Source of the DNA: an uncultured Acidobacteriota bacterium
GTDB taxonomy: Bacteria > Acidobacteriota > Thermoanaerobaculia > Multivoradales > UBA5704
DNA: 64,000 bases
Direction of reading: 5' to 3'
NCBI GenBank assembly: GCA_963756455.1
Contig: CAVWNC010000004.1
Location: 503,098-567,097 of the forward strand
The notes beneath the pieces were generated by a model, which had not been told where the DNA came from, did no database searches, and worked only from the letters and a program-made list of their open reading frames with translations. The position numbers were made by a program, and so were the translations under genes. Every line of letters starts with the position of its first letter. Within the stretch, counting starts at the first letter, position 1. Below, in pieces: positions 1 to 7,427 of this stretch.

Positions 1-681
1 CAGGGGCTCTTCGGCGGCGGGCTCGCGGCCGTAGACGCGGAGGAATCGGCGGAGGGACGCGACGCCGCGGGCCTGGGCCTCCGGCGTCAGCTCGATTCCC
101 AGGAAATGGGGCAGGAGGTGGTTCCTTACGAAGTCGCCCTGCTCGCTCCCCTCGCCTCCCTCGCCCCGATGCCAATCCGCCTCCAGGGCGAGCCGCCAGG
201 AGGCGCGCAGGAAGTTCATCGAGCCGGCGGCCGGGTCGAGCAGGCGAACCCGGGGGTCGGCCAAGCCGGCGCTCCAGCCGAGCTTCGTCTGGAGCAGCCG
301 GTGGACCGAGCGCGCCAGGTAGCCGGTGAGCGCCGGAGGCGTGGCATAGATGCCACAGCGGCCGCGGACGTCCGCCTGCAGGCTTGCCCGCCGCCCCTTG
401 CACACGTGCCCCGAGAGCCGGCTGCCGCGGAGCGCCACCTTGAGCCCCAGGGCCTCCCCTTCGTCCCCACAGGCGACGACCGCGAGGCCGCGCTGCCGCA
501 GGTCGCGGAAGAGGGTTTCGACCCCGCGGCCCAGCTTGGGAAGCCAGGGGATGTCCTGCGAGATCCGGGAGACGTCTTCGATCTCGTCTGCGGTCGGCAC
601 GAATTGGAGCACCAGGTGCCAGGTCTGGCCCGGCCGGGTGAGCGCATGTTTCAAGACGTCGACGACGGAAAGAGCTTTCAT
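1..681 (-). CDS. 5' part of a gamma-class N6-adenine DNA methyltransferase gene (type IIG / Eco57I / PglX-like); 3' end lies beyond the window start
   Basis: Reverse-strand frame is open from ATG at 681-679 to position 1, and is absent from the ORF track because it has no stop. Translation reads MKALSVVDVLKH... and contains GIYATPPALTGYLARSV followed about 40 aa later by LLDPAAGSMNFL. This is the TPP-x-x-V motif followed by AdoMet motif I (LDPAxGSGxFL), in the order seen in M.TaqI-like gamma-class amino-MTases. Confidence 0.5.
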   Translation of the reverse strand, partial: MKALSVVDVLKHALTRPGQTWHLVLQFVPTADEIEDVSRISQDIPWLPKLGRGVETLFRDLRQRGLAVVACGDEGEALGLKVALRGSRLSGHVCKGRRASLQADVRGRCGIYATPPALTGYLARSVHRLLQTKLGWSAGLADPRVRLLDPAAGSMNFLRASWRLALEADWHRGEGGEGSEQGDFVRNHLLPHFLGIELTPEAQARGVASLRRFLRVYGREPAAEEPL

Positions 682-692
682 GGTCGGAGGGG

Positions 693-983
693 TCAGACGC
701 GGGCGGGCTGCTGGTAGTCGGCGGCGGCTTGGAGCGTCTCGATCAGCGGGTCGAGGCGATCGTCGAGCACGATCGCGGCCACCGCCCGGATTTCCGTCAG
801 CACGTCGAGCTCGTCGGGCATGTCGACGTCGGCGATCTCTTCCGGGGAGGGAGGAATGCTGGCGTGCAGCTGGACGAGCCGATCGCGGACGCCCTGCAAG
901 GTCACGACGATCGCCCGCAGCATGGCCCGAGCCACTTCGATCTCCTCGTCTCCGCCGGTCCTCAGCGCTCCCGTCTTCGCCAT
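693..983 (-). CDS. hypothetical 96-aa protein immediately upstream of the methyltransferase gene
   Basis: ORF track 693..983(-). AGGAGA RBS about 10 nt upstream of the ATG at 983. Stop lies 12 bp before the MTase ATG. No recognisable motif. Confidence 0.4.
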   Translation of the reverse strand: MAKTGALRTGGDEEIEVARAMLRAIVVTLQGVRDRLVQLHASIPPSPEEIADVDMPDELDVLTEIRAVAAIVLDDRLDPLIETLQAAADYQQPARV

Positions 984-987
984 CGCT

Positions 988-1188
988 TCAGGCTCTCCTT
1001 TCCCGCGCGAGGCGGAGCGCCCGCCGTCCCCGTCCGTCCGCGATTCGCCAGAGCGGCCGGGTCACGGCCGCGCACGAACGGCAGCCGGAGAGGAGGTGGC
1101 GGACGATGGCGCGGCTTTCGGTCTTCGAGGTCTCCCCTCGGAGGAAGCCGAGGAGCAGGGTGGGGTGGGGATGTTCGCGGTCTCGCAT
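988..1188 (-). CDS. possible small zinc-finger protein with an HxxxCxxC motif (anti-sigma zf-HC2-like)
   Basis: Internal ATG at 1188 of ORF 988..1419(-) gives MRDREHPHPTLLLGFLRGE...VRHLLSGCRSCAAV, which resembles LxxxLDGEL...HLxxCxxC of zf-HC2 domains. Its stop overlaps the RBS of the next gene. The upstream part of the track ORF crosses an AT-richer promoter region and was discarded. Confidence 0.25.
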   Translation of the reverse strand: MRDREHPHPTLLLGFLRGETSKTESRAIVRHLLSGCRSCAAVTRPLWRIADGRGRRALRLARERRA

Positions 1189-1400
1189 GGTGGCTTTCTG
1201 GGTAGCGCTCCAGGCGCCCGGTGCAGGAGATCGTAGGGGCCGCCGTCCTGTCCGAGAGGACGGGAGTGCTTGTTTTCCATGCCTTATCGTTGGTCCGGGG
1301 GTGTGTCGCAGAGTTCCATCATTCTTTCTCGCTCTTTTGTCACGAAAGCACGCTGGCTCGCACTTTGGTCCTATAGGAATCTCTTGTAGGAGGGGATGGA
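1189..1400. promoter_or_regulatory. divergent promoter region between the zf/MTase operon (reverse) and HTH-TPR regulator 1 (forward)
   Basis: A 212-bp non-coding stretch with visibly lower GC than its flanks. GGAGGGG RBS precedes ATG 1401. Confidence 0.3.
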
Positions 1401-2909
1401 ATGACGAGGAAGCGTTCACCCGAGGCTCTGGCCCTGCTCTACCTGCGCCTCGCCTTCAATTGGGGGATCAAGAAGCTGGCGGCGGCCCTCGGGTTTTCGA
1501 GCGAGAAGCACCTCGCCGGCTACGAGACGGGCGAGCGGCCGCTCAGCCGCGACTACCTGGACACCCTCGTCGCTCCGCTCGGCGCCCCGCCGGAGGCGGT
1601 CGACGTCCTGCTCTGGGTCCACGAACGGATCGTCCCCAAGCCCGAGGAGGAGACCGCGCCGGCTTCACCGCTCGACCTCACCCCGGTCGAGCGCTTCAGA
1701 ATCTTCCGCACCGCCCTCGCCGCCGGGTGGGCGCTGGCGGAGAGGCTCGTCACGGAGCTGACGCGGCAGAAAAAGGCGCAGAAGCTGGCGGCGGTCCGGC
1801 GGGCGGCGCAGGAGCTCGCGACGCGGTTGAAGTCGGTTGCGTCGCAGAAGCGGCGGGTGTTGCTCGATCTCTTCCCGGAGTTTCGGAGTTGGGCCGTCGT
1901 GGAGGCGCTCAGCCACGACAGCGAACGGGCGGCCTCGCACTCGGTCGAGAACGCGATGGAGCTCGCCGAGCTCGCCGTCTACGTCGCCGAACGCCTGCCG
2001 GGTGGGGAGGCGGAGCGGGCGAGAGCCGCGGGTTATGGCTGGTGTTACATCGCCAACGCGCTCCGGGTGGCGACCGAGTTCGACCGGGCCGCCGAGGCCA
2101 CGAAGCGCTCCTGGAGACTCTGGCAGGCCGGGGAACCCGCCCGCGCGCTGCCGCTCGCCGAGTGGCGTTTGTGGGATCGCGAAGCGTCCCTGCGGCGCGA
2201 GCAGCAGAGGTTTCCGGAGGCGCTGGAGAGCATTGAACGAGCGCTTGCCTCCTGCGACGGCGAACCTGCGGCGGCTGGGCGCATCCTCCTCAACAAGGAT
2301 GCCATTCTCCATCAGATGGGCGACTTTCAGGGCGCTCTCGAAGCCTTGGTGAAGGCTGCTCCTCTCGTCGAAGCCACGGCGGACCCCAATCAACTCTTCG
2401 CGCTTCGGTTCAACCGGGTTGCCCACCTGTGCGCTTTGGAACGCTTCGCGGCGGCGGCGGCCCTTCTGCCCGAGGTCCGCGAGATGGCAGTCGACCAGGG
2501 CAGGAGATTTCACCTGATCCGGCTGCGGTGGCTGGAGTCCAAACTGATGGCCGGGCAAGGGCAGACCGAGGAGGCGAGGGCCTGTCTGGAGCAAGTCTGC
2601 CAGGAGTTCGCGGGTCTGGATCTACCCTACGAGGCGGCACTCGCCGCGCTCGAGCTGGCAGTGATCGACCTCGAGGCAGGGCGCACCGCCGAGGTGCGGG
2701 AGCTCACGCTTACCATGCGCCGGATCTTCGAGCATAAGGGTATCGCGCGGGAGGCTATGGTTGCACTCGCCCTCTTCTGCGAGGCTGCCCGGCGGGAACG
2801 CGCTACTGTCGAATTGGCGCGCCAGGCAATCGCAGCAGTAGAGAGAGCGCAGCGCTCGGCCTCCCCGGCGACAAGCTGGCGGAGAGGCCGAAGAAAAGCT
2901 CGCTCCTAG
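1401..2909 (+). CDS. XRE-family helix-turn-helix regulator with a C-terminal TPR-like domain (paralog 1, intact)
   Basis: 502 aa. N-terminal ALALLYLRLAFNWGIKKLAAALGFSSEKHLAGYETGERPLSRDYLDTL is an HTH_XRE-like fold. The remainder is alpha-helical TPR-like repeats. RBS aggagggg precedes the start. Confidence 0.75.
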   Translation: MTRKRSPEALALLYLRLAFNWGIKKLAAALGFSSEKHLAGYETGERPLSRDYLDTLVAPLGAPPEAVDVLLWVHERIVPKPEEETAPASPLDLTPVERFRIFRTALAAGWALAERLVTELTRQKKAQKLAAVRRAAQELATRLKSVASQKRRVLLDLFPEFRSWAVVEALSHDSERAASHSVENAMELAELAVYVAERLPGGEAERARAAGYGWCYIANALRVATEFDRAAEATKRSWRLWQAGEPARALPLAEWRLWDREASLRREQQRFPEALESIERALASCDGEPAAAGRILLNKDAILHQMGDFQGALEALVKAAPLVEATADPNQLFALRFNRVAHLCALERFAAAAALLPEVREMAVDQGRRFHLIRLRWLESKLMAGQGQTEEARACLEQVCQEFAGLDLPYEAALAALELAVIDLEAGRTAEVRELTLTMRRIFEHKGIAREAMVALALFCEAARRERATVELARQAIAAVERAQRSASPATSWRRGRRKARS

Positions 2910-3268
2910 CTGTGGCAGCGGCCACCTGGGTCGATAACGCAGCCGGTGTCGGTGCTCGGCTTCGAGGCCCCCTCCGTGCAGCGGCCGTTCGGGTCGATCC
3001 AGCAGCCCAAATTGGTGCTCGCTTTGGGCGGTGCCGGTGGGACCACCTGCGTGGCACCGGTCAGGCAACGACCGCTCGGGTCGATCCAGCAACCCGTGTC
3101 GCTCCAAAGCCTTTGGAGGCTGCTCCAGGCGCGGTCCAAGATCGTCGAAGGGGCCGAGGCCGTCGTTTTCAGAGCCCTTCGCGGCGCGGCGACCGAGGGC
3201 CAGGGGAGGACGAGCACGGCGACGAACAGGAGGAAAAGGGTCTTGCGACGGAGAGAGAGGGTGGTCAT
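2906..3268 (-). CDS. small secreted protein/peptide precursor with three tandem GCWIDPxGRC repeats
   Basis: Second ATG (3268) of ORF 2906..3307(-) is preceded by a GGAG RBS. MTTLSLRRKTLFLLFVAVLVLPWPSVAAP is a signal peptide. It is followed by DTGCWIDPSGRC, NLGCWIDPNGRC and DTGCVIDPGGRC. The DNA shows three imperfect repeats of the core ggtcgatccagca (one copy variant ggtcgataacgca). The gene converges on regulator 1 and diverges from regulator 2. Confidence 0.6.
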   Translation of the reverse strand: MTTLSLRRKTLFLLFVAVLVLPWPSVAAPRRALKTTASAPSTILDRAWSSLQRLWSDTGCWIDPSGRCLTGATQVVPPAPPKASTNLGCWIDPNGRCTEGASKPSTDTGCVIDPGGRCHS

Positions 3269-3384
3269 GGAGGCTCCTGAGGAGAGGGGCTCCGCCGTGG
3301 CCGCCATGGCCCCGGGGGCGGCTCTCGATAAGAAAGGTGCACCAACTCACCATAACCGATGGAAAAACGAGGGAGGGGGTTGAC

Positions 3385-4836
3385 ATGGCGAAGAGGGGAG
3401 ATCCGAAGGTCCTGCGGTTCGTCGTGCTGTTCCTGCGCCACTATGCGGACCTGACCCAGGAGGCCTTCGGCCAGGCCGCGAGGGTCGACCAGGGGACCAT
3501 CTCGATTTACGAGGCGGGCGACAAGGCCCCACCGGAAGACGTTCTGCGGCGGATGGCGGTCGTGGCGCAGGTGCCCTGGCCGCTGGTGGTGCTCCTGCGC
3601 CGCTTCCTCACCGTCCTCTTCGCCTGGCTGGCTGGCGGGAGCGCGCTCGCGGTGCCGCGGGAGGGAACGCCGGCCGAAGAGGCAGCCCTGGAGGCGGCGC
3701 TTCTGGCGGTGGTCCCGTACCGGATCGAGGAGGCTGTAGCGGACGAGAACGGCCCCTCACCGGAGGAGGAGCGCCGGGAGGCCGAGGAGATCTGGGCCGG
3801 CCTGGAGCCCTTTCCGCTCGCCGAACGCCGGCGGTGGATCGAGCTCACCGTCCGCGCCTCCCGGAGTTGGGCCCTGGCGGAGAAAATCTGCCATGCCAGC
3901 GAGCTCGCGGCGGCGCACGAAGAGGCGATGGAGCTGGCGGTCCTCGCCATCTCGATTGCGGAACGGGTGCCGGACGAGGCGCGAAGGGCGCGCACTCTGG
4001 GCTACTCTGGGGGCTACGTCGGAAACGCTCATCGGGTCGCAACCGAATTCGAGCGCGCTCGGGCGGCCTTCGCTCTGGCCCGGGAGCACTGGAAGTCGGG
4101 TGAAGGAGCGCGTTCCCTACCCCTTGCCGGCTGGCGGCTGGAAGACCTCGAAGCGTCGCTCTACACCGATCGACGCCAGTTCCCCGAGGCTCTGGACTGT
4201 CTCAACCGGGCTTTAGCGGCCTGTGGAGACGATGCCTTGGCGGTCGGGCGTATCCTGACGAAGAAGGCGCATGTCCTGGAACAGTTGGGCGACCCCGCGG
4301 GTTCTCTCCAGGCCTTGGAACAGGCGACTCCCGCGATCGAAGCTTCTGGCGATCCGTAGCTCCTCTTTGAGCTTCGCTTCAACACCGTGGCCAACCTTGT
4401 CCACCTGGAGCAATATGAAAAGGGAGAGCGGCTCCTCGCCGAGGTGCGCGAGATGGCGGTCGCGCAAAGAAGGAATCTCCACCTGATCCGCCTGACGTGG
4501 CTGGAGTCTAAGGTAGCCGCCGGGCGGGGACGGACGGAGGAGGCGAAGGCCGGCCTGGAGCAGGTGATCCAGGAGTTCGCGGGCCTCCCCTATGAAGCAG
4601 CTTTGGCCTCCCTGGACCTGGCGGTGCTCCAACTCAAGGAAGGGCGCACGGCCGAGGTGAAGGAGCTGGCGGGCGCCATGGGCGGGATCTTCGAGGTCAA
4701 GGGGATCGCTCGGGAGGCGCTGGCGGCGCTTCGACTTTTCTGCGAGGCCGCGATCCAGGAGGGCGCTACGGTCGAGCTGGCGAAGCAAGTGATCGCTGAG
4801 GTGGAGAGAGCCCAGCGCGCGAGCTCTCCTGCGTAG
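3385..4836 (+). pseudogene. XRE-HTH + TPR regulator paralog 2, interrupted by an in-frame amber codon at 4357-4359
   Basis: ATG 3385 with a gagggaggggg RBS. ORFs 3031..4359 and 4387..4836 share one frame (both coordinate mod 3 = 1). Alignment to paralog 1 reads ADPNQLFALRFN against GDP*LLFELRFN, so a single nonsense change separates the halves. Confidence 0.6.
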
Positions 4837-4892
4837 CGAGGGCCAGGGGTAGGCGTTTGGGATCGCGGGATGCTGGATTCCGTCCGCTCCCA

Positions 4893-5192
4893 CGTGGAGA
4901 CACAACAATCGGACCCAGAAGCCCATGGGAGGGGTTTCCGGACACTACGGCGAGCCGTAGAGACACAAGCGCTGGTCCTGGAGACACTACGGGAGGACGT
5001 AGAGCCACTACGCTTACGACTGTAGACACTACGGAACGATCCAGAGACACTACGTTTTCTGCTGGAGACACTACGAAACGAGCTGGAGACACAAGAAACT
5101 CTGGCGGAAGCGAAGGACACGGCCTGCCGTAGTGTCTCGCCGACCGGTTCCCGGGTGTCGACGGGGGACCTTTGTGTCTCTACGCCAGCAGG
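4893..5192. repeat. array of 21-bp tandem repeats (about 9 direct copies, consensus tgGAGACACTACG + 8 nt) plus 2 inverted copies, abutting the 3' side of tRNA-Leu
   Basis: Successive units include tagagacacaagcgctggtcc, tggagacactacgggaggacg, tagagccactacgcttacgac, tgtagacactacggaacgatc, cagagacactacgttttctgc, tggagacactacgaaacgagc and tggagacacaagaaactctgg. Inverted copies are cgtagtgtctc at about 5128 and tgtgtctctacg at about 5172. Track ORF 4857..5132 (DTT heptads) is its translation artefact. Confidence 0.7.
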
Positions 5193-5208
5193 GTACGAAG
5201 GTCCAGAG

Positions 5209-5291
5209 TGCCGGAGGCGGGACTCGAACCCGCATGCCCTTACGGGCGGAAGATTTTAAGTCTCCTGCGTATACCATTTCGCCACTCCGGC
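5209..5291 (-). tRNA. tRNA-Leu, anticodon UAA
   Basis: Reverse complement reads GCCGGAGUGGCGAAAUGGUAUACGCAGGAGACUUAAAAUCUUCCGCCCGUAAGGGCAUGCGGGUUCGAGUCCCGCCUCCGGCA. There is a 7-bp acceptor stem GCCGGAG/CUCCGGC, an anticodon loop CUUAAAA, a long variable arm and a GGUUCGAGUCC T-arm. CCA is not encoded. Confidence 0.8.
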
Positions 5292-5377
5292 GGCGGCTGG
5301 ATTGTAGCAGTGCCGGCAGGCTACAATCCCGCCCCGCACGCAATCGACCGACCTTCGTCGTCTTGGGACCCTCTGCC

Positions 5378-6463
5378 ATGTATCGTGAGCCCGACCTCTC
5401 TCTGCCGCACTTCGCCGCCGCCCCCGACTGCCGCTTCACCCCGGCGCCGGCGGACACCGTCCTCCCCGATGGGTTCATGTCGACGACCGACCATCCGACC
5501 TACGTCAAGATCGCGGGCCGCTGGCGGATGCCCGAACGGCCGCGCATGGACTCCCACCTGGTTTGGGACCCCGCCACCGAGCGGTTGATCGTCAAGGAGT
5601 TCCGCCTCGTCCGCCAGGGCGACCTCGTGGCCACCGTGCGCGCCGAGGACGGCTCGGAGGGGGTTCTCGTCTGGGATCACGGCTTCGCCGACGAGGTCGA
5701 CCAGACCGCCGCCGAGGCGTTCTCGTTCATGTCCTCCGAGGTGAGCCGGGAGAAGCCGGTCAACTACGATGCCATCTTGAAGGAATTCCTCAACAACCGG
5801 GGCGATCGCGGCTACATCCTCTGGGTGATCGGGCCGGCTCTCGTCCATGCCCGCGGGCGCCAGGCCATGGAGTGGATGATCCACCACGGCTTCTGCCATG
5901 GCCTCATCTCCGGCAACGCGGTGGGAGTCCACGACGTCGAGGCCGCCCTCTACGGCACGACGCTCGGCATGATGGCCGACGGGTCGGGGAGCGCGGGCGG
6001 GCACATCACCCACATGCGGGCGATCAACGAGGTCAAGAAGGCGGGCTCGATCCGCGCTCTGGTCGACGACGGGCGCCTCAAGAGCGGCATCATGCACGCG
6101 CTTACGGTGACCGGCACGCCCTATGTCCTCGGCGGCTCGATCCGCGACGACGGTCCGCTGCCGGAGACCCTCGCCTCCGTCCTCGACGCCCAGGCCGCCA
6201 TGCGCGAGCTGACCGTCCAGGCGACCATGGTCGTCATGGTGGCGACCGCCCTCCACGCCATCGCCGTCGGCAACATGCTCCCCACCTTCTGCGCCCGCCC
6301 CGACGGCTCGATCTCGGAGGTTACGACCATCTGCGTCGACCAGACCGAGTTCGTCGTCAACAAGCTCAAGGACCGCGGCACCCACCAGGCCTTCGGCGTC
6401 GTCACCAACGCCCAGGACTTCCTCCGTCTCCTCCAGCTCGAGCTCCAGGAACGGGTCGGATAG
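5378..6463 (+). CDS. conserved hypothetical protein, possibly a LOR/SDH-like (TIGR00300-type) enzyme
   Basis: Track ORF 5132..6463 begins inside the tRNA, so the start is taken at ATG 5378 (MYREPDLS...). Globular composition with GGHITHMRAINEV and GNAVGVHD motifs. Family assignment is from memory and tentative. Confidence 0.4.
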   Translation: MYREPDLSLPHFAAAPDCRFTPAPADTVLPDGFMSTTDHPTYVKIAGRWRMPERPRMDSHLVWDPATERLIVKEFRLVRQGDLVATVRAEDGSEGVLVWDHGFADEVDQTAAEAFSFMSSEVSREKPVNYDAILKEFLNNRGDRGYILWVIGPALVHARGRQAMEWMIHHGFCHGLISGNAVGVHDVEAALYGTTLGMMADGSGSAGGHITHMRAINEVKKAGSIRALVDDGRLKSGIMHALTVTGTPYVLGGSIRDDGPLPETLASVLDAQAAMRELTVQATMVVMVATALHAIAVGNMLPTFCARPDGSISEVTTICVDQTEFVVNKLKDRGTHQAFGVVTNAQDFLRLLQLELQERVG

Positions 6464-6504
6464 ATAGGTAGCTCCGGCGGCTGGCCTCCGGCATCGCGAT
6501 CTGG

Positions 6505-6905
6505 AATCCCGTAGATCCACGCCAGGGGCAGGGTACTTTGGGCTTGGATCTATGTGGTTCCAGTTTGAAACCACGTAGATCCACGGCGGAAGTCGGGTGC
6601 TTTTGGCGTGGATCTAGGTGGTTCCAGTTTGAATCCACGTAGATCCACGGCGGAGACCGGGTGCTTTTTGTCGTGGATCTGGGTGGTCCTGGTTTGAAAC
6701 CACGTAGATCCACGGGCGGAGGCCGGATGCTTTGGACGTGGATCCAGGTGGTTCCAGTTTGAAACCACGTAGATCCACGGTGGAGGTCGGGTGCTTTTGT
6801 CGTGGATCTAGGTGGTTCCAGTTTGAAACCATGTAGATCCACGGTGGAGGTCGGGTGCATTGGACGTGGTTCTACAGGCTTCCGGTTGGGAACCCGTAGG
6901 CCCAT
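6505..6905. repeat. tandem array of about six 64-bp units, each with a 16-bp-arm hairpin (GTGGATCTAGGTGGTT-ccagtttga-AACCACGTAGATCCAC) plus a conserved 23-bp linker
   Basis: Units start at about 6543, 6608, 6673, 6738, 6802 and 6866, the last one degenerate. Linkers are ggcggaagtcgggtgcttttggc-like and conserved between units, so these are not CRISPR spacers. Every copy shares the same single G-G mismatch in mid-stem. Confidence 0.75.
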
Positions 6906-7073
6906 GCGTCCCACCGCCGGGCGGGCGGTGGTGAGCCAGGGCGGGGGTGCAGGCGACACGGTAGGGCATTCTACGATCCCGTTGCGGTCCCGTGGCTCTG
7001 GGTCGACCAGACTCGGAGATTCGTCAGAGGCGAATCTGCAGGGGTGAGCTTGCAGGTGTTTAGCCTTACCGGC

Positions 7074-7427
7074 TCACCGGCGCTTCTGTTTTCCAGGGGT
7101 GGCAGTCCCGAAGTAGCTCGCTGTTGCCTGTTCGAGGAGGAGTGCTGCGACCTGCATGGGGCTTACTTGCCGGTCCCCCGCGCTGAGCAGACTGGCGAGC
7201 TCTTTGAGACGTTGCTCGGTTTCAGGAGCCATGGGCACCTTCGGCCTTTTACTCCATGCCGGATTGGAAGGACGACCAGGACGCTTACCGGAGCTCGGTT
7301 CCAGTCGCCCTCGCAAGCTCTCCGCCAGCGCTGCCATGCCGAAAGCACCCGCGGAGTAATCGGGCACAGTACCTACCATGGTAGCGCCAAGTTTTTTCGC
7401 CAAGGACTCAATGTTCTTAGCCATCAT
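7074..7427 (-). CDS. putative ribbon-helix-helix (CopG-like) DNA-binding protein, 117 aa
   Basis: KRPKVPMAPETEQRLKELASLLSAGDRQVSPMQVAALLLEQA fits a strand-helix-helix RHH pattern. It overlaps the upstream ORF by 11 bp. Confidence 0.4.
   Translation of the reverse strand: MMAKNIESLAKKLGATMVGTVPDYSAGAFGMAALAESLRGRLEPSSGKRPGRPSNPAWSKRPKVPMAPETEQRLKELASLLSAGDRQVSPMQVAALLLEQATASYFGTATPGKQKRR

Follow-up and report, generated by a model that had tools for sequence, protein, structure and literature searches.

The closest described counterparts of the locus analyzed here are the RRNPP (or RRNPPA) peptide-signaling systems, which include Rap-Phr, NprR-NprX, PlcR-PapR, Rgg-SHP, PrgX and AimR-AimP. Their receptors form a C-terminal superhelix of 5-9 tetratricopeptide repeats (TPRs) or TPR-like repeats with a concave peptide pocket, and their pheromones are matured from the C-terminal part of a propeptide (PMC9765709). 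Peptide signaling through cytoplasmic TPR receptors is regarded as a hallmark of the Gram-positive Bacillota, and the pertinent accounts describe RRNPPA systems only there (PMC9765709, PMC10075063, PMC12998947). Literature searches for RRNPP(A) together with Acidobacteriota, Thermoanaerobaculia, diderm or Gram-negative surfaced no such system. Here, we analyze a locus in a 64,000-nucleotide stretch (hereafter the window) of contig CAVWNC010000004.1, positions 503,098 to 567,097, from an uncultured member of the Thermoanaerobaculia (Acidobacteriota), for which an initial annotation had proposed an RRNPP-like peptide-signaling cassette. The locus encodes two regulators with helix-turn-helix (HTH) and TPR domains, Reg1 and Reg2, and between them a small, predicted secreted peptide with Cys-bracketed loops. 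By comparative genomics, this arrangement is a conserved and as yet undescribed module of the Thermoanaerobaculia, a soil lineage of Acidobacteria in which copies of the module number in the hundreds.

The module resembles RRNPP systems in its putative receptor, which joins an N-terminal HTH, found in all RRNPP subfamilies except Rap, to a predicted C-terminal series of TPR-like repeats, and in that the receptor gene adjoins a small gene for a signal-peptide-bearing propeptide (PMC9765709). It differs from them in several respects. Homology is absent outside the HTH and the similarity in fold is generic, the host is a diderm member of the Acidobacteriota rather than of the Bacillota, and the genes for peptide and receptor converge, whereas in Bacillales the peptide gene is co-directional and downstream and in Lactobacillales it is otherwise arranged. 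The putative ligand is Cys-bracketed with a near-invariant core, unlike the linear, unmodified and highly diversified RRNPP pheromones, and is encoded in a precursor of 80-140 amino acids (aa). Finally, the module comprises two receptors with different HTHs and one shared sensor, and a 50-residue helix separates HTH and TPR domain.

Two individual systems resemble the module in layout. In Streptococcus pyogenes, the paralogous peptide-binding regulators Rgg2 and Rgg3 respond to one family of SHP peptides with different outputs, and the peptide genes are divergent from a regulator gene; the pairing of paralogous regulators and the divergent peptide gene are features that the module has in common with them. 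However, Rgg proteins, which have about 280 aa and degenerate TPR-like repeats, are unrelated in sequence to the module regulators, and the SHPs are linear, hydrophobic peptides exported by PptAB. To our knowledge, gene conversion of sensor domains has not been described for Rgg. On the Enterococcus plasmid pCF10, prgX and prgQ are divergent genes with overlapping 5' regions and characterized antisense RNAs. Here, the likeness lies in the combination of an HTH regulator (peptide-sensing in pCF10), opposing or overlapping transcription and RNA-level control at the peptide locus, but the module genes overlap at their 3' ends and the RNA element of the module is a candidate 5' leader hairpin.

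Conservation of the module

In its full form, the module runs from the small genes B and A, which are divergent from Reg1, through Reg1 and the peptide gene convergent with it to Reg2, which is divergent from the peptide gene across about 110 bp. Loci were compiled from genomes by scanning one genome per GTDB species with a regulator profile (217 confirmed stretches, 78 loci kept) and from metagenomes by searching with a peptide profile. About 150 independent loci contain both the peptide family and the arrangement as a whole, more than chance would produce. All 78 genome loci belong to Thermoanaerobaculia, Holophagales or Acidobacteriota metagenome-assembled genomes (MAGs). At least 431 Reg1 homologues of about 490-500 aa were found, and the named sources among 120 listed are all Thermoanaerobaculia or Acidobacteriota. 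The genome from which the window is taken contains a second module (peptide P0009) of identical layout. No relatives of the module were found in phage collections, and plasmid collections returned only a weak partial TPR match. When open reading frames (ORFs) within 6 kb of the 78 loci were clustered, the only recurrent families were the regulators, the peptide, A and B.

Regulator and peptide gene are tightly linked. A convergent peptide gene is located at the 3' end of 78 of the 106 regulator copies in species genomes that have an intact C-terminal end and sufficient room downstream; the 28 copies without it are mostly Reg2-type. Seen from the peptide, a convergent Reg1-type C-terminal end lies within 300 bp of 64 of the 68 metagenomic peptide genes with at least 300 nt of downstream sequence, and a divergent Reg2-type N-terminus accompanies 39 of the 57 with at least 700 nt upstream. 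Repeats of the form C-x-[ILVM]-D-P-x-G-x-C were detected by six-frame search in 72 of the 78 genome loci, almost all on the opposite strand and mostly within about 130 bp of the regulator 3' end, and in most genome loci a Reg2-type gene starts about 104-119 bp past the peptide start on the other strand. The pairing of regulator and small secreted peptide is thus almost obligate in both directions (78/106 and 64/68), and the regulators are consequently not widespread without an adjacent small secreted ORF, the observation that the initial annotation had named as speaking against its proposal. The peptide gene adjoins the regulators as had been proposed, but its conserved partner is the convergent Reg1, and not chiefly the divergent Reg2.

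Reg2 may also have a convergent peptide gene of its own, as the conserved layout predicts. Such a gene is present in loci L004, L010, L013, L051 and L070; in the window, no second peptide gene convergent with Reg2 was found. A second peptide subtype with a shorter N-terminus, MRRTL[VI]A..., is encoded in L004 (9420-9725), L010 (9454-9708), L047 (10064-10366) and L051 (4271-4555). It is convergent with Reg2-type genes, except that in L047 it lies about 760 bp downstream instead. Since this subtype adjoins Reg2-type genes, the sequences suggest two regulator-peptide units in tandem as the origin of the module. In L071, an ORF on the minus strand (8751-9191) consists of repeated GDDRGQCGDDRR units that run into one Cys-loop motif; possibly, this ORF arose from a peptide gene by rearrangement or expansion.

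The peptide precursor

The peptide gene of the window (2906-3268, minus strand) encodes a precursor of 120 aa, not 121 as initially annotated; its position on the opposite strand, its signal peptide and its three loops were described correctly. The signal peptide is followed by a conserved Trp-rich helix, three C-[WV]-I-D-P-x-G-R-C loops and the C-terminus C-H-S. The loops GCWIDPSGRC (3065-3091), GCWIDPNGRC (2978-3004) and GCVIDPGGRC (2915-2941) contain the nine-residue Cys-bracketed units CWIDPSGRC, CWIDPNGRC and GCVIDPGGRCHS. A GGAG motif precedes the ATG by 5-9 nt. With its basic n-region LRRK, hydrophobic core and A-x-A site, the N-terminus is predicted to be of Sec type. A Tat signal with an RR motif was rejected, as only the second Arg is invariant and the following residues are not hydrophobic. 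The stop codons of the convergent Reg1 and peptide genes overlap by 4 nt (CTAG, 2906-2909), and no terminator was found between the two genes.

Conservation of the peptide, which the initial annotation had presupposed, is borne out by a HMMER scan of 1.84 billion cluster representatives, in which 1753 matched the peptide profile at E <=1e-3 and 742 at 1e-10; the best 150 matches are 72-169 aa long. A word-indexed homologue search had returned only 22 relatives and, as the full scan shows, understated the family. Pfam and NCBIfam scans of the peptide gave no specific family, a match to chi-conotoxin (E 0.22) was dismissed as noise, and literature searches for the loop sequences yielded nothing relevant.

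Loop statistics were derived from 157 distinct precursors of the collected loci with 372 loops. Precursors have one to four loops, most often two (65 precursors) or three (66), and exactly two residues follow the last Cys in 119 of the 157. Within the loop, hardly any variation is seen in G-C, [I/L]-D-P, G and the closing C, whereas position 2 is hypervariable and accommodates 18 different residues. Two repeats agree at position 2 in 47% of pairs from one precursor, compared with 12% of pairs from different precursors; the position reads W/W/V in the window and R/R in the second module of the same genome, and Trp at this position is almost unique to the window (2 of 372 loops). Between the loops, the linkers of a single precursor are dissimilar (mean similarity ratio 0.51). 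An AlphaFold2 model of the precursor is non-globular (predicted local distance difference test, pLDDT, 62; predicted template modeling score, pTM, 0.23), with a signal helix, the conserved helix at 40-56, three two-stranded mini-hairpins at the loops and disordered linkers. The proposed analogy to multicopy pheromone precursors has a precedent in Rap-Phr systems, for which tandem pheromone copies in one propeptide are documented (PMC11343458).

The regulators and their relation to RRNPP receptors

Reg1 (1401-2909, plus strand) is an intact ORF of 502 aa with an XRE-type HTH, a linker, a long helix and about eight TPR-like repeats. Its HTH matches Pfam HTH_3 with 21.4 bits, which is under the cut-off of 23, and TPR matches were obtained as well; when searched against PDB sequences, the regulator family profile retrieved XRE-type HTH structures (E 1.9e-4). 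The AlphaFold2 model of Reg1, which is based on a 31-sequence alignment (pLDDT 88.4, pTM 0.76), shows a five-helix HTH (7-77) that a disordered linker connects to one helix of 50 residues (95-144), followed by 17 TPR-like helices (148-486), and a fold search placed Rap, NprR, PlcR and AimR among the structural neighbors. The HTH-TPR architecture that the initial annotation had recognized is thus present in Reg1.

Membership in the RRNPP family, in contrast, is not supported by the sequences, because homology was tested and not found and because the taxon differs. Neither Pfam nor NCBIfam nor a PDB-sequence profile search revealed homology to any RRNPP subfamily (Rap, Rgg/ComR, NprR, PlcR, PrgX, AimR). 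The matches of the regulators in these searches were generic TPR and HTH only, Rgg structures being hit solely through the HTH (E 0.13-0.24), and the NCBIfam scan assigned neither Reg1 nor Reg2 to a specific family. Eukaryotic TPR proteins outrank the RRNPP members in the fold search. One regulator homologue (P0079, 507 aa, 49% identical) has a precomputed Sigma70_r4_2 match (PF08281) in place of the XRE HTH, a sigma-type domain of interest beside the anti-sigma-like gene A.

Sensor homogenization and co-variation with the peptide

Reg1 and Reg2 had been described as paralogues, which holds for their TPR parts: residues 160-483 of the window Reg2 reading frame are 60% identical to residues 162-490 of Reg1, but the N-terminal 160 residues are unalignable. 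This split is general. In the 24 loci with a full-length Reg2, Reg1 and Reg2 of the same locus share 70% identity in the TPR domain and 22% in the N-terminal 150 residues, compared with 52% and 21%, respectively, between Reg1 and Reg2 of different loci, 52% and 42% between Reg1 proteins, and 54% and 40% between Reg2 proteins. Reg2 as a simple tandem duplicate of Reg1 is ruled out by the N-terminal 150 residues, which are 22% identical within a locus and 40-42% identical within a type. In loci L029, L035, L068 and L078, the 3'-terminal 1 kb of Reg1 and Reg2 is about 100% identical at the nucleotide level (for example in L035, at 5986 and 7845), with a sharp boundary near nucleotide 420-480, at the HTH/TPR junction, upstream of which the 5' parts are unrelated. 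These four are long-read assemblies; repeats of this kind would probably appear collapsed or broken in short-read MAGs. Their sequences indicate recent gene conversion confined to the sensor domain, and a decayed version of the pattern is seen in L034, L004 and the window. Taken together, the identity values and the identical 3' ends mean that, by all sequence comparisons made, two ancient HTH types have been kept distinct while the sensor domain was repeatedly homogenized around the peptide gene.

The variable loop position follows this sensor. A partial Mantel test over 71 modules with 500 permutations related the position-2 signature to TPR divergence (partial rho 0.24, 0/500 permutations as high), whereas its relation to HTH divergence with TPR controlled was nil (partial rho 0.00). 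Loop position 6 behaved similarly to position 2 (0.17, 2/500) and position 8 did not. The notion that the peptide belongs to the adjacent receptor thus gains support from the co-variation of a variable loop position with the TPR domain.

The control region and its leader hairpin

Peptide gene and Reg2 are separated by a control region of 116 bp (3269-3384), with a hairpin at the peptide side and a conserved box at the Reg2 side, the family consensus of which is A-rich / GTGNACC / CATAACCTATG. The 66 orthologous regions that we compared are strikingly alike. Of these, 44 span 104-119 bp, and mean pairwise identity is 0.67 in the peptide-proximal 70 nt compared with 0.60-0.61 in flanking coding DNA. 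The palindrome GCCATGGC previously noted in the intergenic region was confirmed and forms, at 3303-3310, the apex of a covarying hairpin (3266-3333, minus strand), which consists of 19 pairs, is GC-rich, has the apical loop AUGGN and is located directly 5' of the Shine-Dalgarno sequence and the ATG.

In peptide sense, the hairpin folds in each orthologous region, and it precedes nearly every peptide gene. A covariance model was built from the genome loci and run on metagenomic loci not used in building; it gave 74 matches, all in peptide orientation, and those of the highest-scoring matches that were checked extend to the start codon of the peptide gene. On the 64-kb window, the model has a single match (3266-3333, 65.6 bits). 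In the metagenomic set, 84% of cells were paired, as opposed to 37-52% with partners slid by 1-3 columns, in an alignment fitted to the model; on a crude MAFFT alignment, the values were 78% and 34-50%. Compensatory changes occur in 15 of the 19 pairs, and all five measures exceeded all 500 shuffles. The ratio of G-U to A-C cells (91 to 71 in the crude, 98 to 57 in the model-based alignment) is a weak test of strand and of RNA versus DNA. The sequence evidence leans towards an RNA element in the leader of the peptide mRNA, a DNA operator being the alternative. Rfam 15 contains no family for the hairpin; in window positions 600-7200, only a tRNA scored above threshold. A scan for E. coli-type promoters found nothing. 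An in-frame upstream ATG (3307) was rejected as the peptide start, because its spacing to the main ATG is out of frame elsewhere (e.g. L013) and because the region behaves as a structured non-coding element. At three sites with a match to the hairpin model (L049 3038-3105, L052 3840-3908, L066 248-313), no intact Cys-loop ORF is readable; frameshifts or decay of a peptide gene could account for this, as could errors in sequencing.

Truncation of Reg2

Reg2 had been annotated as one protein of about 500 aa (3385-4836), but an in-frame TAG at 4357-4359 ends its product at 324 aa (3385-4359, plus strand). This product comprises a distinct XRE HTH (HTH_31, 33.9 bits, cut-off 27) and the first TPRs (TPR_12, 29 bits). 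The C-terminal remnant (4360-4836, plus strand) has 158 sense codons plus a stop (159 with stop) and is still open, in frame and homologous to the TPR C-terminus of Reg1, which points to a nonsense mutation of recent date. The identical 324-aa Reg2 call was obtained from run ERR11718634 in an independent Logan assembly; the stop is therefore not a pasting artefact.

Short Reg2 proteins are common. Three size classes can be told apart among the Reg2-type ORFs, one of about 464-499 aa (28 loci), one of about 250-270 aa (about 14 loci) and one of 120-220 aa. Naturally short forms in other genomes have 120-308 aa, and the closest relatives of the window Reg2, with 300 and 308 aa, show no homology past the stop. 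Judged by these comparisons, the 324-aa Reg2 of the window with its intact-looking remnant is an early stage of a recurrent truncation.

Genes A and B

Gene A (988-1188, minus strand, ATG at 1188) encodes a 66-aa protein with an H-x3-C-x2-C motif (RHLLSGCRSC), which resembles the zf-HC2 anti-sigma zinc finger. Translationally close to it, gene B (693-983, minus strand) encodes an acidic helical protein of 96 aa with the motif TEIR-x-V-x-x-x-V-L-x-D-x-x-x-P, for which Pfam and NCBIfam gave no family match. The divergent intergenic region between A and Reg1 (1189-1400) presumably contains the promoters of both; in other loci, the distance from A to Reg1 has a median of 224 bp. Among 66 loci whose upstream sequence extends for 1 kb or more, and with B identified by a hidden Markov model built from homologues, B is found divergent upstream of Reg1 in 38, A in 30 and A and/or B in 48 (about 73%). 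The match of gene A to Pfam zf-HC2 (PF13490) is borderline; the window copy scores 14.1 bits and the best homologue 22.1 bits, at a cut-off of 22.2. The H-x3-C-x2-C motif is kept in the window copy and all homologues and lies in the helical context expected of zf-HC2 (ZAS) anti-sigma domains. Unlike these, A has only about 66-85 aa and neither a transmembrane nor a C-terminal sensor part, and the clustering of neighboring ORFs revealed no gene for an extracytoplasmic function (ECF) sigma factor in the module.

A putative peptide-signaling module and its alternatives

We propose that the locus is a lineage-specific peptide-signaling module that arose independently as an analogue, not a homologue, of RRNPP systems. 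The proposal builds on a precursor with a Sec-type signal peptide that is genetically locked between two HTH-TPR regulators, and of which the only conserved mature elements are one to four nine-residue Cys-bracketed loops, the last one two residues from the C-terminus. After export and oxidation, proteolysis would free the loops, or the C-terminal loop, which would accumulate outside the cell or in the periplasm and then re-enter. In the cytoplasm, they could dock onto the concave side of the TPR superhelix in Reg1 and, where Reg2 is intact, in Reg2 as well. Both regulators would thus read one ligand via their shared, gene-converted sensor, while their distinct HTHs may act on different operators. 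Likely targets would be the control region between peptide gene and Reg2 (feedback) and the divergent A-B operon (output via the anti-sigma-like protein), and the hairpin before the peptide ribosome-binding site could add a cis-acting layer at the RNA level. The window Reg2, which has lost most of its sensor, would, if active, be a ligand-blind HTH protein like the natural short forms.

We assign this proposal a probability of only about 40%, because we infer every biochemical step in it, namely binding, processing, outer-membrane export and re-import of the peptide. Several observations weigh against it. A disulfide would be reduced in the cytoplasm, and no peptidase, oligopeptide transporter, modifying enzyme or ABC exporter is conserved within 6 kb of the 78 genome loci. 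The TPR fold match is generic, as the higher scores of eukaryotic TPR proteins illustrate. The loop core hardly varies even between regulators that share only 40% identity, whereas known pherotype systems diversify far more, and precursors of 80-140 aa with a conserved amphipathic helix could act as intact secreted proteins. The co-variation of peptide and TPR domain could result from physical linkage, since the TPR-coding 3' end abuts the peptide gene, and the noisier distances of the short HTH could contribute to it; gene conversion between adjacent direct repeats can be neutral. Characterized RRNPPA ligands are all linear and unmodified (PMC12998947).

Some of these points would suit a secreted or periplasmic effector, such as a multi-headed protease inhibitor, an antimicrobial or defensin-like protein, or a metal- or redox-reactive protein, with Reg1 and Reg2 as its dedicated regulators and TPRs that sense another cue. 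The strongly conserved loop core resembles a nine-residue disulfide-closed structural scaffold, and the inhibitor loops of Bowman-Birk and SFTI inhibitors are nine-residue disulfide loops, too. The precursor, with its conserved helix, also exceeds the usual size of pheromone propeptides, no genes for import or processing are linked to it, and the conserved control region with its hairpin points to heavy regulation of the peptide gene itself. An effector, however, would leave three observations unexplained: each paralogous peptide gene retains a regulator pair of its own, the residue at the variable loop position follows the TPR domain rather than the HTH, and around the peptide gene two regulators with different DNA-binding domains have kept the same sensor. 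Moreover, neither an immunity gene nor a dedicated exporter is present. We regard this explanation, the main alternative, as doubtful, although it deserves serious consideration. We consider it improbable that the module is a self-contained switch without an extracellular signal, in which the TPR domains mediate protein contacts (between Reg1 and Reg2, or with A, B or the unexported precursor), convergent transcription and the hairpin produce bistability, and the exported peptide is an output or by-product. Reg1 and the peptide gene overlap tail to tail without a terminator between them and their transcripts must therefore collide or overlap, homogenized TPRs would also favor an association of Reg1 with Reg2, and the cytoplasmic-looking small proteins A and B, of which A resembles an anti-sigma zinc finger, accompany most modules. 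But A and B are missing from about a quarter of the loci, whereas the peptide is nearly always present, and many Reg2 copies have no TPR domain at all. The conserved parts of the peptide, furthermore, are its signal peptide and Cys loops, which indicates an extracytoplasmic role. Finally, repeated short cores with a conserved region ahead of them recall ribosomally synthesized and post-translationally modified peptides (RiPPs), for which multi-core precursors exist; modifying enzymes would then be encoded elsewhere and the regulators would only control the pathway. This seems highly improbable to us: neither a modifying enzyme nor a peptidase or an ABC exporter is conserved in the 6-kb neighborhoods, the precursor begins with a Sec signal peptide and not with a leader of the type recognized by RiPP enzymes, and the cores are conserved and the linkers variable, which is the opposite of most RiPP families.

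If peptide signaling should prove right in all its parts, the module would represent the first cytoplasmic-receptor peptide quorum sensing outside the Bacillota, of independent origin in diderm Acidobacteriota, with disulfide-cyclized multi-copy nonapeptide pheromones, two regulators, a shared sensor that recurrent gene conversion matches to the peptide, a new leader RNA motif in control of pheromone production and many orthogonal copies per genome, which would amount to a private signaling repertoire in abundant soil bacteria; we rate this combination as rather unlikely. Few soil bacteria are as abundant, or as intractable, as the Acidobacteriota, and their communication is almost uncharted. 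The module supplies a defined peptide, a receptor domain, two control regions and hundreds of natural variants for experiments, and it provides a case from nature in which two regulators have one sensor in common through gene conversion, as well as a candidate for a new cis-regulatory RNA motif. Were the peptide an effector, it would still stand for a family of secreted disulfide-loop proteins that is large, has not been described and comes with regulators dedicated to it.

Further features of the window

Between the end of Reg2 and a tRNA-Leu(taa) gene (5208-5291, minus strand), positions 4896-5139 contain about 7-10 copies of a 12-bp motif, GGAGACACTACG, at a spacing of about 21 bp, with an inverted copy at 5128-5139; seven of the nine window-wide matches are located in this stretch. 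In appearance, the array is similar to iterons or to the arm sites of recombinases, and it lies where a second peptide gene might be expected. Further downstream, a 64-bp tandem repeat (6510-6874) comprises 5.7 copies that match at 85% and includes no convincing ORF. A clustered regularly interspaced short palindromic repeats (CRISPR) array was ruled out for this region, as the units are too similar throughout. An Rfam match to a plant microRNA family at 6736-6843, which is outside the leader, is sub-threshold (34 bits, threshold 79) and probably noise. Tandem genes on the plus strand at 8052-12948, which are unrelated to the module, encode duplicated MacB-like permeases of about 810 aa with the N-terminus MRDLWNDLRYAARTLGRSPGFT, which we take to be typical of the acidobacterial ADOP family and thus to fit the taxonomic placement of the window.

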